Positions 9,664 to 23,025 of a stretch of DNA of 64,000 nt are shown here, piece by piece. The notes beneath the pieces were generated by a model. That model searched no databases, was not told the origin of the DNA, and worked only from the letters and a program-made list of their open reading frames with translations. Numbering within the stretch: the stretch's first letter is position 1; each line of letters opens with the position of its first letter. The position numbers and the translations under genes are program-made. The DNA comes from Escherichia coli (GTDB lineage Bacteria; Pseudomonadota; Gammaproteobacteria; Enterobacterales; Enterobacteriaceae), in NCBI RefSeq assembly GCF_050920415.1, contig NZ_CP169309.1; one strand, given 5' to 3'.

Positions 9664-12531
9664 ATGGGCATCAAACAACACAATGGGAATACCAAAGCCG
9701 ATCGTCTCGCTGAATTAAAAATCCGTTCGCCCTCCATTCAACTGATAAAATATGGCGCTATTGGTTTGAATGCAATTATCTTTTCCCCCCTGCTGATAGC
9801 TGCTGATTTAGGAAGTCAAAATGGCACCAATATTACTATTAATGATGGTGACAGAATTACAGGAGATACCGCCGATCCATCAGGAAACCTCTATGGTGTA
9901 ATGACCCCAGCAGGAAACACGCCTGGCAATATCAACCTGGGTGATGATGTCACCGTCAATGTCAACGACGCCTCTGGATATGCAAAGGGAATCATTATTC
10001 AGGGCAAGAACAGCTCTCTGACAGCTAACCGACTTACAGTAGATGTTGTTGGTCAAACCTCTGCCATCGGCATTAATTTAATTGGTGACTATACACATGC
10101 TGACTTAGGCACAGGCAGCACCATTAAGAGTAACGATGACGGCATCATTATTGGGCATAGCTCAACACTAACAGCCTCTCAATTCACCATTGAAAACTCG
10201 AACGGTATAGGCCTAACCATCAATGACTATGGCACCAGTGTCGATCTTGGAAGCGGTAGTAAAATCAAGACCGATGGAAGTACAGGTGTTTATATCGGTG
10301 GTCTCAACGGCAATAACGCCAACGGTGCTGCGCGTTTTACGGCGACAGACCTGACAATCGATGTTCAGGGCTACAGCGCCATGGGAATAAACGTACAGAA
10401 AAACTCTGTTGTCGATCTCGGAACAAACAGTACCATTAAAACCAATGGCGATAATGCACACGGCCTCTGGAGCTTTGGCCAGGTGAGCGCGAATGCACTC
10501 ACTGTTGATGTAACTGGAGCCGCTGCCAATGGCGTCGAAGTTCGTGGTGGTACAACCACTATCGGTGCTGATAGCCATATTTCTTCCGCGCAGGGCGGTG
10601 GCCTCGTAACCAGTGGTTCAGACGCGACAATCAATTTTTCTGGCACGGCAGCGCAACGAAACAGCATCTTTTCCAGCGGTTCTTATGGTGCCTCAGCCCA
10701 GACGGCAACGGCTGTTATCAACATGCAAAATACCGATATTACGGTTGATCGTAATGGCAGTCTGGCGCTGGGTTTGTGGGCGCTCAGCGGCGGTAGAATA
10801 ACCGGAGACAGTTTGGCTATCACCGGCGCGGCAGGAGCCAGGGGGATTTATGCCATGACCAACAGCCAGATCGATCTCACGAGCGATCTGGTCATTGATA
10901 TGAGTACACCCGACCAGATGGCCATCGCAACGCAACATGACGATGGTTATGCCGCCAGCCGCATCAACGCCTCGGGTCGTATGCTTATCAACGGTAGCGT
11001 TCTTTCTAAAGGTGGGCTAATCAATCTGGATATGCACCCTGGGTCGGTTTGGACAGGTTCTTCCCTCAGCGATAATGTCAATGGCGGAAAACTGGACGTT
11101 GCAATGAATAACAGCGTCTGGAACGTAACAAGTAATTCTAATCTCGACACGCTGGCGCTGAGCCATTCAACTGTCGATTTTGCCAGCCACGCGTCAACTG
11201 CCGGCACATTTACCACATTAAACGTAGAGAACCTTAGCGGTAACAGTACCTTTATTATGCGTGCTGATGTTGTTGGCGAGGGTAATGGCGTTAATAATAA
11301 AGGAGATTTATTGAATATCTGCGGGAGTAGTGCTGGTAATCACGTATTGGCTATCCGTAACCAGGGCAGCGAGGCCACAACGGGAAATGAAGTTCTGACA
11401 GTGGTAAAAACCACTGACGGCGCGGCCTCGTTCAGCGCGTCTTCTCAGGTTGAGTTGGGGGGATATCTGTATGATGTGCGTAAAAATGGCACTAACTGGG
11501 AGCTTTATGCTTCCGGGACAATTCCGGAGCCGACTCCTAATCCAGAGCCCACACCAGCTCCCGCTCAGCCCCCCATAGTCAACCCCGATCCTACGCCTGC
11601 CCCCGCTCCCACGCCTAAACCCACCACGACCGCAGATGCTGGCGGCAATTATCTCAATGTCGGTTACTTATTGAACTATGTTGAAAACCGTACGCTGATG
11701 CAACGGATGGGTGACCTGCGAAATCAGGGTAAAGACGGTAATATCTGGTTGCGCAGTTATGGGGGAAGCCTGGACTCCTTTGCCAGTGGCAAACTGAGCG
11801 GCTTTGACATGGGTTACAGCGGTATCCAGTTTGGTGGGGATAAACGTCTCTCTGATGAAATGCCGTTGTATGTCGGTCTGTATATTGGCTCAACACATGC
11901 ATCGCCGGACTATAGCGGAGGCGACGGTACCGCACGTTCAGACTACATGGGAATGTACGCCAGTTACATGGCACACAACGGTTTTTACAGCGATCTCGTT
12001 GTAAAAGCATCGCACCAGAAAAATAGTTTCCACGTACTGGACAGTCAGAACAACGGCGTTAACGCCAACGGCACTGCGAATGGATTGAGCATCTCCCTGG
12101 AAGCCGGGCAGAGGTTCAACCTGACCCCTACTGGTTATGGGTTCTATATAGAGCCGCAAACCCAGCTCACATACAGCCACCAGAATGGGATGGCTATGAA
12201 GGCGAGTAATGGTCTCAATATACATCTGAATCACTACGAATCGCTGCTGGGGCGTGCCAGCATGATACTGGGATATGACATCACCGCAGGCAACAGCCAG
12301 CTGAATGTCTATGTGAAGACTGGCGCTATCCGCGAGTTTTCAGGGGATACCGAATATCTGTTGAACAACTCCCGGGAGAAGTACAGTTTCAAAGGTAATG
12401 GCTGGAATAACGGCGTGGGAGTCAGTGCACAGTATAACAAACAGCACACATTCTATCTCGAAGCGGATTACACGCAGGGTAACCTCTTTGATCAGAAGCA
12501 AGTCAACGGAGGATATCGCTTCAGCTTTTAA
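9664..12531 (+). CDS. ycgV: AIDA/pertactin-type autotransporter (putative adhesin YcgV)
   Basis: 955-aa ORF: extended signal region, Gly/Thr/Asn-rich beta-helix-like repeats, Pro-rich linker (PEPTPNPEPTPAPAQPP...), C-terminal beta-barrel ending ...YRFSF. Confidence 0.85.
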   Translation: MGIKQHNGNTKADRLAELKIRSPSIQLIKYGAIGLNAIIFSPLLIAADLGSQNGTNITINDGDRITGDTADPSGNLYGVMTPAGNTPGNINLGDDVTVNVNDASGYAKGIIIQGKNSSLTANRLTVDVVGQTSAIGINLIGDYTHADLGTGSTIKSNDDGIIIGHSSTLTASQFTIENSNGIGLTINDYGTSVDLGSGSKIKTDGSTGVYIGGLNGNNANGAARFTATDLTIDVQGYSAMGINVQKNSVVDLGTNSTIKTNGDNAHGLWSFGQVSANALTVDVTGAAANGVEVRGGTTTIGADSHISSAQGGGLVTSGSDATINFSGTAAQRNSIFSSGSYGASAQTATAVINMQNTDITVDRNGSLALGLWALSGGRITGDSLAITGAAGARGIYAMTNSQIDLTSDLVIDMSTPDQMAIATQHDDGYAASRINASGRMLINGSVLSKGGLINLDMHPGSVWTGSSLSDNVNGGKLDVAMNNSVWNVTSNSNLDTLALSHSTVDFASHASTAGTFTTLNVENLSGNSTFIMRADVVGEGNGVNNKGDLLNICGSSAGNHVLAIRNQGSEATTGNEVLTVVKTTDGAASFSASSQVELGGYLYDVRKNGTNWELYASGTIPEPTPNPEPTPAPAQPPIVNPDPTPAPAPTPKPTTTADAGGNYLNVGYLLNYVENRTLMQRMGDLRNQGKDGNIWLRSYGGSLDSFASGKLSGFDMGYSGIQFGGDKRLSDEMPLYVGLYIGSTHASPDYSGGDGTARSDYMGMYASYMAHNGFYSDLVVKASHQKNSFHVLDSQNNGVNANGTANGLSISLEAGQRFNLTPTGYGFYIEPQTQLTYSHQNGMAMKASNGLNIHLNHYESLLGRASMILGYDITAGNSQLNVYVKTGAIREFSGDTEYLLNNSREKYSFKGNGWNNGVGVSAQYNKQHTFYLEADYTQGNLFDQKQVNGGYRFSF

Positions 12532-18240: not shown

Positions 18241-19938
18241 ATGAAAGCCACCGCCCCTCCTCGCCCGCAAAAAATAGCGTTAATTCCCGCCTGCGTTTTG
18301 TTGTGTTTCGCTGCGCTAGCGGTGCAGGCAGAAGAAACGCCAGTAACGCCACAGCCGCCTGATATTTTGTTAGGGCCGCTGTTTAACGATGTGCAAAACG
18401 CCAAACTTTTTCCGGACCAAAAGACCTTTGCTGATGCCGTGCCGAACAGCGATCCGCTAATGATCCTTGCAGATTATCGAATGCAGCAAAACCAGAGCGG
18501 CTTTGATCTGCGCCATTTCGTTAACGTCAATTTCACTCTGCCGAAAGAGGGAGAGAAATATGTTCCGCCAGAAGGGCAGTCGCTGCGCGAACATATTGAC
18601 GGACTTTGGCCTGTATTAACGCGTTCTACCGAAAACACCGAAAAATGGGATTCTCTGTTACCGCTGCCGGAACCTTATGTCGTGCCGGGCGGACGTTTTC
18701 GCGAGGTATATTACTGGGACAGTTACTTCACCATGTTAGGGCTTGCCGAAAGCGGTCACTGGGATAAAGTCGCGGATATGGTGGCCAATTTTGCTCATGA
18801 AATAGACACTTACGGGCATATTCCCAACGGCAACCGCAGTTACTATTTAAGCCGCTCGCAACCGCCATTCTTTGCCCTGATGGTAGAGTTACTGGCGCAG
18901 CATGAAGGCGATGCCGCGTTGAAGCAATACCTGCCGCAAATGCAAAAAGAATATGCTTACTGGATGGACGGTGTTGAAAACCTGCAAGCCGGACAACAGG
19001 AAAAACGCGTTGTAAAACTTCAGGATGGTACCCTTCTCAACCGCTACTGGGACGATCGCGATACGCCACGACCAGAGTCATGGGTGGAAGATATTGCCAC
19101 CGCCAAAAGCAACCCGAACCGGCCTGCCACTGAAATTTACCGCGACCTGCGCTCTGCCGCTGCGTCTGGCTGGGATTTCAGCTCGCGCTGGATGGACAAT
19201 CCGCAGCAGTTAAATACCTTACGCACCACCAGCATCGTACCGGTCGATCTGAACAGCCTGATGTTCAAAATGGAAAAAATCCTCGCCCGCGCCAGCAAAG
19301 CTGCCGGAGATAACGCGATGGCAAACCAGTACGAAACGCTGGCGAATGCCCGTCAAAAAGGGATCGAAAAATATCTGTGGAACGATCAACAAGGCTGGTA
19401 TGCCGATTACGATCTGAAAAGTCATAAAGTGCGCAATCAGTTAACCGCTGCCGCCCTGTTCCCGCTGTACGTCAATGCGGCAGCGAAAGATCGCGCCAAC
19501 AAAATGGCGACGGCGACGAAAACACATCTGCTGCAACCAGGCGGCCTGAACACCACGTCGGTGAAAAGTGGGCAACAATGGGATGCGCCAAACGGCTGGG
19601 CACCGTTGCAGTGGGTCGCGACAGAAGGATTACAAAACTACGGGCAAAAAGAGGTGGCGATGGACATTAGCTGGCACTTCCTTACCAATGTTCAGCACAC
19701 CTATGACCGGGAGAAAAAGCTGGTGGAAAAATATGATGTCAGCACCACCGGAACAGGGGGCGGCGGTGGCGAATATCCATTACAGGATGGCTTTGGCTGG
19801 ACCAATGGCGTGACGCTGAAAATGCTGGATTTGATCTGCCCGAAAGAGCAACCGTGTGACAATGTTCCGGCGACGCGTCCACTCAGTGAATCAACAACAC
19901 AGCCGCTAAAACAAAAAGAGGCGGAACCTACGCCTTAA
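18241..19938 (+). CDS. treA: Periplasmic trehalase
   Basis: 566-aa ORF (565 aa from the second Met) with signal peptide and glycoside hydrolase family 37 body; the N-terminus and extreme C-terminus differ slightly from the K-12 sequence as I remember it. Confidence 0.9.
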
Positions 19939-19952
19939 CTTTACTGTATATC

Positions 19953-19996
19953 GAGCAATGCCATTACGTGCATAAAATTGGCATTGCTCTTTCTTC
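19953..19996 (+). terminator. Possible terminator downstream of treA
   Basis: gagcaatgcc ... ggcattgctc 10-bp stem with a long 17-nt loop, followed by tttcttc. Confidence 0.4.
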
Positions 19997-20267
19997 ATCA
20001 CGAAATACCACTCTTTCTACAGTCTATGCCTTTATTTTCTTTTATTAGGGAAGATTTTAATTTTATTTTATCAACTTATTAATCATTACACCTCTATTTA
20101 TATTTTTCCCCACTCCCCATTCTCCCTGACAATTTTCTTGTGGAACAAAGTGTTATTTAAGAAACAAGCAAATCATTCTGTCTCTTTAGACAAATTTTGA
20201 CATCAAACATGATCTTTTTCGCTATATATGTAAGTATATATCGGTTTTAATTATCAGGATATTACTT

Positions 20268-21290
20268 ATGTCACTAACCAGACGGAGGTTTACACAGATT
20301 CTTGCGTCGACATTGTTCCTGCATCATCTGCCGTCCTTTGCACAATCAGTCAAATTCTGGGCCTCACTGACGCTTCCCGAAGCCCAAAACATTACACGCA
20401 TCGTCAGCGCAGGCGCGCCCGCCGATTTACTATTGCTGGCTGTCGCGCCAGAAAAAATGGTCGGTTTTTCCTCTTTTGATTTTGCCCGTCAGGCATTAAT
20501 TCCATTGCCAGAGCACATTCGCCAGTTCCCCAGGCTGGGACGACTCGCCGGGCGCGCCAGCACACTCTCGCTGGAAGGGCTTATGGCATTACATCCCGAT
20601 TTGGTCGTTGATTGCGGCAATACGGATGAAACCTGGATCTCCCAGGCACGGCAGGTTAGCGAACAGACACAAATACCCTGGTTATTGCTTAACGGGAAAC
20701 TGGAACAATCAGCAGAACAGTTAACAACGCTTGGCAAAACGTTAGGCGAAGAGCACCGCGCCGCAGAACAAGCCAATCTCGCCAGCCGCTTCGTTGGTGA
20801 AGCTAAGGCATTCGCCACCTCACCCGCCGCTAACCTCAGCTTTTATGCTGCGCGCGGTCCTCGAGGGCTGGAAACGGGCTTACAGGGTTCGTTGCATACC
20901 GAGGCGGCGGAATTATTAGGTTTGCACAACGTCGCGCAAATAGCCGATCGCCACGGTCTGACACAGGTTTCCATGGAAAATCTCCTGCGCTGGCAGCCGG
21001 ATATTATTCTGGTTCAGGAGGCCGTTACTGCAGATTTTATTCGTCGTGATCCTCTCTGGCAGGGCGTGAAAGCGGTTGCGGAACAACGCATCTTATTTTT
21101 AAGTGGCCTGCCCTTTGGCTGGCTGGGTGCCCCGCCGGGAATCAACCGTCTTCTGGGATTACGCAGACTTCACGCCTGGCTGGATCCCGCCATCAATCGC
21201 CAGTTTAAAAGTGACATGCAGCATTACGCCCAACTGTTCTGGCATTGCCCATTAAGTGACGCTGACTATCAAAAATTGGTGGCGAGCTAA
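20268..21290 (+). CDS. Periplasmic substrate-binding protein of a metal-chelate ABC importer (FecB/BtuF/TroA-like fold)
   Basis: 340-aa ORF; N-terminus MSLTRRRFTQILASTLFLHHLPSFAQ resembles a signal peptide with a twin-arginine-like motif; first gene of a tightly packed six-gene operon. Confidence 0.7.
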   Translation: MSLTRRRFTQILASTLFLHHLPSFAQSVKFWASLTLPEAQNITRIVSAGAPADLLLLAVAPEKMVGFSSFDFARQALIPLPEHIRQFPRLGRLAGRASTLSLEGLMALHPDLVVDCGNTDETWISQARQVSEQTQIPWLLLNGKLEQSAEQLTTLGKTLGEEHRAAEQANLASRFVGEAKAFATSPAANLSFYAARGPRGLETGLQGSLHTEAAELLGLHNVAQIADRHGLTQVSMENLLRWQPDIILVQEAVTADFIRRDPLWQGVKAVAEQRILFLSGLPFGWLGAPPGINRLLGLRRLHAWLDPAINRQFKSDMQHYAQLFWHCPLSDADYQKLVAS

Positions 21291-22270
21291 TGAGAACCGT
21301 AAACGGATGTATTTTGCTGCTGGCAGCTATCAGTATCACTTTTGCCGCCGTAAGTGGGGCTTATCATCTCGATATACAGCAACTGCTGGCGCTCATTCTG
21401 CGTCAAGAAAATGTTCCTGTGCAGGAACAAATTGTCTTCTGGCAAATCCGCGTGCCGCGTATTCTTGCTGCGCTGTTTCTGGGCGCGGCGCTGGCAGGGG
21501 CCGGAACCACCTATCAGGGAATGTTCCGTAATCCCTTAGTGTCACCGGATATTTTAGGCGTCTCCGCCGGTGCCGGACTTGGTGCCTGCGCGGCAATCCT
21601 GTGGGGATTATCCATTGTTTACATCCAGCTGTACGCATTTTGCGGCGGGCTGATGGTGGTCGCGGGCGTCTGGTTGATTACGCGTCGGGTGACCCGCCAC
21701 GATCCGATCTTAACCCTGGTGCTGGTAGGCATTGCGTTAGGAACGTTGTGCGGAGCGGGGATATCGCTAATAAAAACGCTGGCCGATCCTTACACCCAGT
21801 TACCGTCAATTACCTTCTGGTTGCTGGGGGGGCTGTCCACCGTGACCTTACGCGATCTCTGCTATGCTGCACCGATCATTCTCATAGGCTCCTTGCCCCT
21901 GTTTTTTCTCCGCTGGCGCATGAATTTACTCACGCTTTCCGACGACGAAGCCCATTCGCTGGGACTGAACGTGACACGTCTGCGCTTTGGATTGATTGTC
22001 TGCGCCACACTCATCACCGCCAGCACGGTAGCAATAGCGGGCATAATTGGTTGGGTCGGCCTGGTCGTTCCGCACATTGCCCGCTTGTTGACCGGTCATA
22101 ACCATCAGCAGCTATTGCCCATGGCAATGTGTACTGGCGCGATTCTGCTCCTGCTTACCGATACGCTGGCACGCAGCATTGGAACAACAGAAATCCCACT
22201 TGGCATTCTGACCGCTTTTGTTGGTGCACCGTTTTTCCTGTTTTTGTTGTTACGCGGAGGTCGCCAGTGA
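21290..22270 (+). CDS. FecCD-family ABC permease
   Basis: 326-aa polytopic membrane ORF; start overlaps upstream stop (TAATG). Confidence 0.75.
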   Translation: MRTVNGCILLLAAISITFAAVSGAYHLDIQQLLALILRQENVPVQEQIVFWQIRVPRILAALFLGAALAGAGTTYQGMFRNPLVSPDILGVSAGAGLGACAAILWGLSIVYIQLYAFCGGLMVVAGVWLITRRVTRHDPILTLVLVGIALGTLCGAGISLIKTLADPYTQLPSITFWLLGGLSTVTLRDLCYAAPIILIGSLPLFFLRWRMNLLTLSDDEAHSLGLNVTRLRFGLIVCATLITASTVAIAGIIGWVGLVVPHIARLLTGHNHQQLLPMAMCTGAILLLLTDTLARSIGTTEIPLGILTAFVGAPFFLFLLLRGGRQ

Positions 22271-23025
22271 CTTTGCTTGCCGTCCGTCATGCGTCTCTGG
22301 GTTACTCCCGCCATCCGATGCTACGCGACGTGTCCTTCACCCTGTCGCAAGGAACAATTTGTTGTCTGTTAGGAGCCAATGGTTGCGGCAAAACCACACT
22401 CATGCGCTCCATTCTTGGCGTTATACCGTTATTAAAAGGCGAGATCTTACTGGATAGCCTCCCTGTGCAGACACTCAGCCATCGCCAGCGCGCGCAGGCT
22501 ATTGCCTGGGTGCCGCAGGCGCACGACGGCATTTTTGCTTTTAGTGTGCTGGATATGGTGTTGATGGGCCTGGCCCCCACCATAGGCGCTTTTTCCGTTC
22601 CCGGTAAGCAAGAACGCCTGAAAGCAACGGAGCAACTGGAAAAGCTGGGCATTTTGCATCTGGCGACACGACGCTGGAATACACTTAGCGGCGGTGAACG
22701 TCAGCTGGCTTTAATCGCCCGTGCACTCGTCCAGCAACCGCGCTTGTTATTACTGGATGAGCCTGCCTCCAGCCTCGATTTCGGTCATCAGATCCAACTA
22801 CTGGACACGCTGGCGCAGCTCAAAAATAACGGCATGACAATGCTAATGTCGACTCATCATCCGCTCCATGCCAACGCCATTGCCGACAGCATTATCCAGG
22901 TAGAGCCAGATGGACGAGTAACACAAGGCTTACCGACCGAACAGTTAACAACGAACAAACTGGCTGCCCTGTATCGGGTTTCTGCCGACCAGATTCATCA
23001 TCACCTCTCTGCAATTAGCCACTAA
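22267..23025 (+). CDS. ABC transporter ATP-binding protein
   Basis: Walker A GANGCGKTT, signature LSGGERQ, Walker B LLLLDEPASSLD; start placed at the GTG at 22267 overlapping the permease stop (GTGA), giving about 252 aa; the track ORF from 22129 would overlap the permease by about 140 nt. Confidence 0.75.
   Translation: MTLLAVRHASLGYSRHPMLRDVSFTLSQGTICCLLGANGCGKTTLMRSILGVIPLLKGEILLDSLPVQTLSHRQRAQAIAWVPQAHDGIFAFSVLDMVLMGLAPTIGAFSVPGKQERLKATEQLEKLGILHLATRRWNTLSGGERQLALIARALVQQPRLLLLDEPASSLDFGHQIQLLDTLAQLKNNGMTMLMSTHHPLHANAIADSIIQVEPDGRVTQGLPTEQLTTNKLAALYRVSADQIHHHLSAISH

Follow-up and report, generated by a model that had tools for sequence, protein, structure and literature searches.

The periplasmic binding protein FhuD offers a precedent for the protein considered here. 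Escherichia coli FhuD is listed as a substrate of the twin-arginine translocation (Tat) pathway (PMC1182353, PMC7549933, PMC8262268), and a further paper, which cites Tullman-Ercek 2007, reports that its signal peptide uses both Tat and the general secretory (Sec) pathway (PMC4039329). In cyanobacteria, Tat dependence of the iron-binding protein Tery_3377 (IdiA/FutA) was shown by an RR-to-KK change of its twin arginines (PMC6254336). Here we describe a binding-protein gene at 20268-21290 in a 64,000-nucleotide stretch of the E. coli chromosome (hereafter the window). Its product, named by RefSeq 'iron ABC transporter substrate-binding protein' (WP_000060132; ABC, ATP-binding cassette), is the first encoded in a six-gene cassette. 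The presequence of this protein is most likely a functional twin-arginine signal, and on the features set out below we lean, if only somewhat, towards Tat as its main export route.

The presequence and its export route

The open reading frame (ORF; 20268-21290, plus strand, 340 aa) has its earliest possible start codon at 20268, where RefSeq also places the start. The product begins MSLTRRRFTQILASTLFLHHLPSFA, followed by Q. Translation from 20268 gives MSLTRRRFTQILASTLFLHHLPSFAQSVKF (DNA ATG TCA CTA ACC AGA CGG AGG TTT ACA CAG), and residues 1-30 read M-S-L-T-R-R-R-F-T-Q-I-L-A-S-T-L-F-L-H-H-L-P-S-F-A-Q-S-V-K-F. Because 20268 is the first start codon and the presequence contains no Cys, an alternative start of the ORF and a lipoprotein are both ruled out. 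The parts of the gene that bear on export are as follows.

20268-20342, plus strand: 25 codons for the predicted signal peptide (n-region MSLT; motif T-R-R-R-F-T-Q; hydrophobic or h-region ILASTLFL(HH)LP; c-region S-F-A)
20277-20297, plus strand: twin-arginine motif codons T4-Q10, encoding T-R-R-R-F-T-Q, with R5 and R6 as the twin pair and R7 as the variable x
20343-21290, plus strand: mature substrate-binding protein of the PF01497 family, stop codon included (from Pfam, profile, AlphaFold and Foldseek comparisons)
20256-20259, plus strand: AGGA, a Shine-Dalgarno sequence 8 nt upstream of the ATG (from the sequence itself)

The first-pass annotation had drawn attention to T-R-R-R-F and a following hydrophobic stretch at this N-terminus, and both are present in the sequence from 20268. 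The range that it gave, 20268-20350, begins correctly and runs about 8 nt too far, as the predicted signal ends at 20342 and comprises 25 residues rather than 26. Placed where the n-region meets the h-region, the motif fits an S/T-R-R-x-F-L-K-like consensus, and the presequence matches the default TatP pattern RR.[FGAVML][LITMVF] (PMC1182353). We required [ST]RRx[FL] within the first 35 residues and at least 13 uncharged residues after it; of the 227 ORFs with 60 aa or more that the window contains across its six frames, this one alone qualified. The twin-arginine motif is a real, non-random observation.

Codon by codon, the motif runs T4 (20277-79), R5 (20280-82), R6 (20283-85), R7 (20286-88), F8 (20289-91), T9 (20292-94) and Q10 (20295-97). 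R5 and R6 are invariant in orthologues while position 7 may be M, R, T, L or V, which sets the register as T(-1)-R-R-x-F-T-Q; a crude RR-anchored scoring matrix also places its anchor at R5. After the three arginines come 21 uncharged residues. Small residues are kept at -3 and -1 (S-F-A/Q in the query and A-L-A/Q or A-F-A/Q in orthologues, the slash denoting the cut), so that, by the -3/-1 rule, signal peptidase I cleavage is predicted after A25, with Q26 the likely start of the mature protein and a signal of 25 residues. The AlphaFold model has a helix at residues 5-18 and a pLDDT (predicted local distance difference test) below 50 at residues 22-25.

To describe how these residues are conserved, we used 83 distinct orthologue presequences from homologues of at least 49% identity, belonging to Escherichia, Citrobacter, Salmonella, Klebsiella, Serratia, Yersinia and Shewanella. 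Arg occupies each twin position in 82/83, with a K-containing variant in a single presequence (1/83). The flanking positions are also kept: S or T is found at -1 in 80/83, F or L at +3 in 82/83 and Q at +5 in 68/83. Column entropy is 0.09 bit at the arginines, compared with about 1.7-3 bits over most of the h-region. Across seven loci the arginine pair is encoded as AGA CGG (common to the window and Citrobacter), CGT CGT, CGT CGC, CGT AGA, CGT CGA or AGA CGT, and these synonymous differences indicate selection on the protein rather than on the DNA.

This pattern bears on the simplest alternative, a plain Sec signal in which the arginines contribute n-region charge only and the likeness to a Tat signal has no function. 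Sec n-regions take K and R interchangeably, yet RR is retained in 82/83 presequences across genera through synonymous codon changes, and the flanking S/T and F/L are conserved with it. Furthermore, orthologues at 39-47% identity carry a textbook N-R-R-Q-F-L-K or N-R-R-S-F-L-K, and canonical RRQFLK, RRSFLK or RRDFL occurs in more distant orthologues; a full RRxFLK in such relatives also argues against charge as the sole role of the arginines.

Among representatives of 50%-identity clusters, a Tat-like motif is present in 23/29 with at least 38% identity to the query, in 9/27 at 33-38% and in 6/58 below 33%, where lipoprotein boxes (25/58) and plain Sec signals predominate. Judged by presequence motif, a Tat-type signal is the common state in the binding protein's own clade. 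The first-pass annotation had considered Tat export unusual for FecB/BtuF-type binding proteins, a view that these counts do not bear out: the motif recurs in 23 of the 29 closest representatives, and FhuD, from the same Pfam family, is a precedent.

We then compared Kyte-Doolittle windows of the presequence with those of 24 Sec control peptides, whose sequences were entered by hand (a weakness of this comparison), and 25 E. coli Tat peptides. The best 10-residue window of the query (1.48) and its best 12-residue window (1.23) fall under every one of the 24 Sec controls and at the lower end of the range spanned by the 25 Tat peptides. A second control, made within the family and built from database-derived sequences only, gave a mean hydrophobicity of 2.13 +/- 0.33 for RR-type presequences (n=32) and 2.71 +/- 0.47 for non-RR presequences (n=51; p = 3.6e-7); in the same comparison lipobox presequences averaged 2.92 and close orthologues 1.83. 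The RR motif and a weak hydrophobic core thus co-occur within the family, as they would in working Tat signals, and this association too speaks against a plain Sec signal. In the crude RR-anchored matrix the query scores 14.8, close to FhuD (15.7) and TorA (14.7), and the top Sec control reaches 11.1. Taken together, the motif match, the conserved arginines and the low hydrophobicity uphold the resemblance to a Tat signal that had been pointed out at first pass.

A basic residue near the cleavage site discourages Sec export, and is a c-region feature that is common, though not universal, in Tat signals. In 32/83 orthologues an Arg occupies such a place, six residues ahead of the cut and corresponding to position 19.

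Several observations weigh against a dedicated Tat signal. The E. coli protein has H19-H20 near the cleavage site instead of Arg or Lys, and its best 8-residue window (ILASTLFL) scores 2.38, inside the Sec range. Tat signals average 37 aa (PMC1182353), compared with 25 aa in the query. Two curated Tat models, TIGR01409 (cut-off 16.7 bits) and PF10518 (22.7 bits), gave no match to the query peptide even at E <= 10, and they match only 1 and 3, respectively, of 40 family members (E <= 0.1). The TatP pattern on its own fits 7% of Gram-negative Sec signals (PMC1182353). Finally, strain PCN033, an extraintestinal pathogenic E. coli (ExPEC), has the operon with an identical presequence (PPECC33_RS06365), and the binding protein is missing from its 25 published TatP-predicted substrates (PMC7549933).

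How far the negative model searches reach can be judged from nine positive controls. TIGR01409 passes for SufI, TorA, EfeB, CueO and NapA (5/9), leaves WcaM sub-threshold and misses FhuD, AmiC and EfeO, and PF10518 passes for CueO and NapA only (2/9); FhuD and EfeO are thus missed by both. Many of the 40 family members carry a perfect RRxFLK, and the curated models appear to need a kind of h-region other than that of the query's clade. Given this low sensitivity on controls and family, the negative result counts but is not decisive. The PCN033 list calls for similar caution. FhuD is missed by TatP according to TatP's own authors (PMC1182353), yet it figures in that list (PMC7549933), which was therefore probably curated towards known substrates, making the omission weak evidence.

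A plain Sec signal would nonetheless account for the failure of both curated models, the absence from the PCN033 list, the 7% of Gram-negative Sec signals that the TatP pattern also matches, and the general make-up of the peptide: 25 residues, a core rich in Leu and Phe, and a cleavage site of the usual A-x-A type. Within the MolA clade, moreover, relatives use ordinary Sec signals such as MKINNKLFLLLIFLLSLSFTTQA. Set beside the conservation and the within-family hydrophobicity described above, we consider a plain Sec signal unlikely.

A different reading of the same features is a promiscuous signal, which engages Tat while also working through Sec, such that each route alone would supply sufficient binding protein and a tat mutant would show little or no transport defect. 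The 8-residue core at 2.38 lies within the Sec range, no basic residue is found near the cleavage site, the peptide is as short as a Sec signal, and the curated Tat hidden Markov models fail on the query just as they do on FhuD. The FhuD signal, from the same family and organism, is reported to use Tat and Sec (PMC4039329), and some route flexibility is also reported for AmiA, AmiC and SufI (PMC8262268). By contrast, the strict retention of both arginines, with Lys in 1/83 presequences, suggests that Tat recognition matters for fitness, and hydrophobicity over 10-12 residues is under that of every Sec control. In addition, K29 would be residue +4 of the mature protein if cleavage follows A25 as predicted, and Lys at this position is mildly unfavourable for Sec. 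On balance we view a promiscuous signal as a serious but rather unlikely alternative, and Tat as the main route is the reading that we carry forward.

The six-gene cassette and its regulation

The window lies on the E. coli chromosome, and its positions 19900-21400 are 100% identical to NZ_CP169399.1. RefSeq gives the gene order dhaR-dhaKLM-treA, the six operon genes, and ymgE-ycgR-emtA. The operon segment occurs in 2149/5426 complete E. coli genomes and is therefore accessory. Upstream and downstream of the binding-protein gene, the cassette comprises the following features.

20218-20245, strand not assigned: putative ModE operator TTCGCTATATA-tgtaag-TATATATCGGT, 23-50 nt upstream of the start codon, from its consensus match
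21290-22270, plus strand: FecCD/BtuC-type ABC permease (RefSeq; NCBIfam BtuC/FecD-type matches, all under equivalog cut-offs)
22267-23025, plus strand: ABC transporter ATP-binding protein (RefSeq; NCBIfam)
23035-23847, plus strand: class I S-adenosylmethionine-dependent methyltransferase (RefSeq; NCBIfam), in the cassette at 6/6 orthologous loci examined
23844-24698, plus strand: ModD, a paralogue of quinolinate phosphoribosyltransferase (NadC) (TIGR01334, 502 bits against a cut-off of 178.85; RefSeq name modD)
24724-26694, plus strand: TonB-dependent outer-membrane receptor (RefSeq; Plug and beta-barrel domains in orthologues; no equivalog cut-off reached)

Compared with ATCGNTATATA-N6-TATATANCGAT, the consensus for E. 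coli ModE (PMC545781), the putative operator agrees at 18 of the 20 positions that are specified. Its core, CGNTATATA-N6-TATATANCG, is perfect and is the sole match in the window, where 0.01 matches would be expected even with 2 mismatches allowed; the next best ModE score elsewhere in the 64 kb is 14/20. Six orthologous loci were examined for the cassette (L002, L003, L005, L006, L007 and L008), and at five of them a ModE box of 17-18/20 stands at the same place. The orthologous gene is preceded by an 18/20 box in Citrobacter (-52), Serratia (-46), Shewanella (-40) and L008 (-77) and by a 17/20 box at L007 (-78); L002 reaches only 14/20. Molybdate-bound ModE represses modABC. Given the position of the operator 23-50 nt before the start codon, repression of this operon by molybdate-bound ModE is the natural inference and probably holds here as well.

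Evidence for an iron signal was correspondingly sought and is not convincing. The best Fur-box match, 13/19, falls in an AT-rich segment overlapping the ModE box, and orthologous loci give 11-13/19 (13/19 at L002; 11/19 at L003 and L005); Fur or iron regulation is thus not supported by any convincing Fur box in the window or the orthologous loci. From the ModE operator, the presence of modD and this lack of a Fur box, we conclude that the operon probably encodes a TonB/ABC uptake system repressed by molybdate, and that the label 'iron' is probably wrong. That the cargo of such a ModE-controlled system is molybdenum or tungsten we propose more tentatively, as a possibility that falls at or slightly short of an even balance. 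We found no description of the operon, including any of ModD or ModE together with TonB, in the searchable literature, which did not cover the ModE survey of Studholme and Pau 2003. One apparent mention was rejected: the strain table of PMC7549933 lists a 'ΔmodD' mutant, and Tables 2 and 3 of that paper give MdoD/mdoD, so that the entry is probably a printing error for mdoD, with no bearing on the operon's modD.

The cassette itself is widely kept. All six genes, ModD included, are found in Citrobacter (at the same treA-ymgE site), in Serratia fonticola and at one locus of 45% identity, and Shewanella and two further loci have the cassette without ModD. The cassette is thus conserved across gamma-proteobacteria, with the methyltransferase present at every locus examined and ModD missing at the three loci just named. 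At L008, whose cassette is 40% identical, a 271-aa protein with a helix-turn-helix and a TOBE domain (10622-11437) replaces ModD, a domain layout that we take to be that of ModE. The same locus has a second ModE-like box (17/20) at about 11517, where the gene for the TonB-dependent receptor is annotated to begin.

Within the operon, adjacent genes overlap by 1-4 nt: the stop codon of the binding protein and the start codon of the permease share 1 nt (21290), and overlaps also join the permease to the ATPase (22267-22270) and the methyltransferase to ModD (23844-23847). These overlaps suggest translational coupling and a single transcript. A sigma-70 scan of 19850-20350 returned no plus-strand promoter; a TTGACA is present at 20197-20202, with no good -10 hexamer at a spacing of 16-18 nt. 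Scanned with Rfam (E <= 1), the segment 17000-28000 revealed no cobalamin or molybdenum cofactor riboswitch, and the single hit, Chlorobi-1 (E = 0.69), is at chance level and far from the gene, on which basis we reject a riboswitch. In ExPEC strain PCN033 the annotation treats the permease gene (L009 26472-27452, PPECC33_RS06360), which has an internal stop, as a pseudogene, and the binding-protein gene is intact; the uptake system may be decaying in some lineages.

Probable folded export and the question of a cofactor

If Tat is the main route, the first 25 residues would act as a working twin-arginine signal peptide, in which R5-R6 within T-R-R-R-F-T-Q would be recognised by TatBC. The short, weakly hydrophobic core ILASTLFL, broken by HH, would disfavour Sec, although some Sec leakage is possible. 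Signal peptidase I would then cut after S-F-A. The binding protein would be exported in a folded state, most likely without a cofactor, in line with AmiA, AmiC and SufI, for which no such requirement is predicted, and would serve as the periplasmic component of the six-gene uptake cassette. Since molybdate-bound ModE probably represses the cassette, the protein would be produced when molybdenum is scarce.

Redox proteins with a cofactor are frequent among Tat substrates (PMC1182353), which raises a further explanation, namely that Tat is used because the binding protein has to be loaded before it leaves the cytoplasm, with a cofactor or small ligand that ModD and the methyltransferase might make. 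The presence in the cassette of these two conserved cytoplasmic enzymes provides circumstantial support. The operon, however, contains no gene for a Tat proofreading chaperone, the structural model is an ordinary two-lobe binding-protein fold, and the Shewanella locus and two other orthologous loci without ModD keep the RR signal. AmiA, AmiC and SufI, moreover, use Tat although no need for a cofactor lacking in the periplasm is predicted for them (PMC8262268). We regard loaded export as very improbable. The same applies to its most elaborate form, a new molybdenum-starvation pathway in which a ModE-repressed, TonB-dependent system would import a molybdenum or tungsten complex, as opposed to free molybdate or an iron siderophore, and the binding protein would be Tat-exported loaded with a small chelator that ModD and the methyltransferase make or modify, Tat thereby serving as the chelator's export route; this we find far-fetched. 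The cofactor or ligand that, at first pass, was thought possibly to be bound before Tat export finds no support: the operon has no maturation chaperone gene, and Tat substrates that require no cofactor exist (AmiA, AmiC and SufI; PMC8262268).

Tat export of a folded, cofactor-less protein, if true, would make this binding protein a further cofactor-less Tat substrate candidate of the FhuD family, and one encoded in the accessory genome. It would be an accessory-genome addition to the E. coli Tat substrate list, as it figures in none of the three published lists consulted, and the second FhuD-family binding protein in E. coli to use Tat without an obvious cofactor, which would help with the question of why such proteins avoid Sec. 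Of more practical weight is the context. The transporter is annotated for iron, but its regulatory signal and its neighbours point to molybdenum, and a molybdenum link would change the interpretation of the operon by those working on pathogen genomes or on metal limitation.

Comparison with known binding proteins and Tat substrates

The binding protein matches Pfam PF01497 (Peripla_BP_2) with 63.2 bits, where the cut-off is 27.5. None of the NCBIfam equivalog cut-offs is reached; among the iron-siderophore equivalogs, the FecB, FepB and IsdE models give 21-32 bits against cut-offs of 205-320. The PF01497 fold class is that of FhuD, BtuF, FecB and MolA, and the two-lobe fold of the AlphaFold model (pLDDT 91; predicted template modelling score, pTM, 0.86) fits the solved members. 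A 40-sequence family profile searched against the PDB matched 4pag best (2.6e-60), followed by 4ovk, 4hn9 and then MolA/HI_1472 (3psa, 4.8e-22), and the matches from 4pag to MolA outrank binding proteins for haem, B12 and siderophores. By Foldseek, 4pag is again the best match (template modelling scores 0.77/0.81) and MolA the next (0.67/0.70), with all top PDB matches belonging to the same binding-protein class.

The closest protein of solved structure, by both sequence and structure, is therefore 4pag, an ABC solute-binding protein of Sulfurospirillum deleyianum, which is found by the single query sequence with E = 3.3e-25 and is 26% identical to it. Of the solved structures whose ligand is known, the closest is that of MolA (HI_1472), from the molybdate/tungstate importer MolBC-A of Haemophilus influenzae. 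Both MolA and the query serve a BtuCD/FecCD-type ABC importer, and the modD gene and ModE box of the query operon fit a molybdenum link, for which the ModE-like gene at L008 is further indirect support; the two proteins, however, share only ~20% identity. Orthology of the query to MolA is rejected on this identity and on the existence of a separate MolA clade with Sec-type signals. That group consists of relatives, including some from E. coli, which are 52-65% identical to the MolA fragment and carry ordinary Sec signals. Five of them (P0349, P0355, P0333, P0311 and P0317, of which P0311 is named E. coli) are 57-59% identical to the H. influenzae MolA fragment, and the two with a complete N-terminus, P0349 and P0355, begin with the Sec-type signal MKINNKLFLLLIFLLSLSFTTQA. 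Judged by these sequences, the MolA-like group is a system separate from the window's operon.

FhuD resembles the query in several respects. It belongs to PF01497, comes from the same organism, and works as the binding protein for a BtuCD-type ABC importer that a TonB-dependent receptor supplies. Its short signal contains S-R-R-R-L-L (MSGLPLISRRRLLTAMALSPLLWQMNTAQA in strain PCN033), and like the query it is missed by TIGR01409 and PF10518. The two are distant, however: the FhuD NCBIfam model is weakly matched by 14/40 family members and not by the query. FhuD binds hydroxamate siderophores, whereas the query gene has a ModE box and no convincing Fur box, and the FhuD signal is reported to use both routes, whereas the Tat route of the query is a prediction from sequence.

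SufI (FtsP) is the model cofactor-less E. coli Tat substrate, and its signal begins MSLSRRQFIQ (PMC7549933, Table 2), identical at 7/10 positions to the MSLTRRRFTQ of the query. The signals are 27 and 25 residues long, respectively, and both end in an A-x-A-type cleavage site. In contrast to the Leu/Phe/His-rich h-region of the query, which TIGR01409 does not recognise, that of SufI is Gly/Ala-rich and scores 24.8 bits, and the mature proteins are unrelated. Tery_3377 belongs to another binding-protein family and another organism. As the binding protein of an ABC transporter, like the query, it nevertheless demonstrates that Tat is open to binding proteins that lack a redox cofactor.

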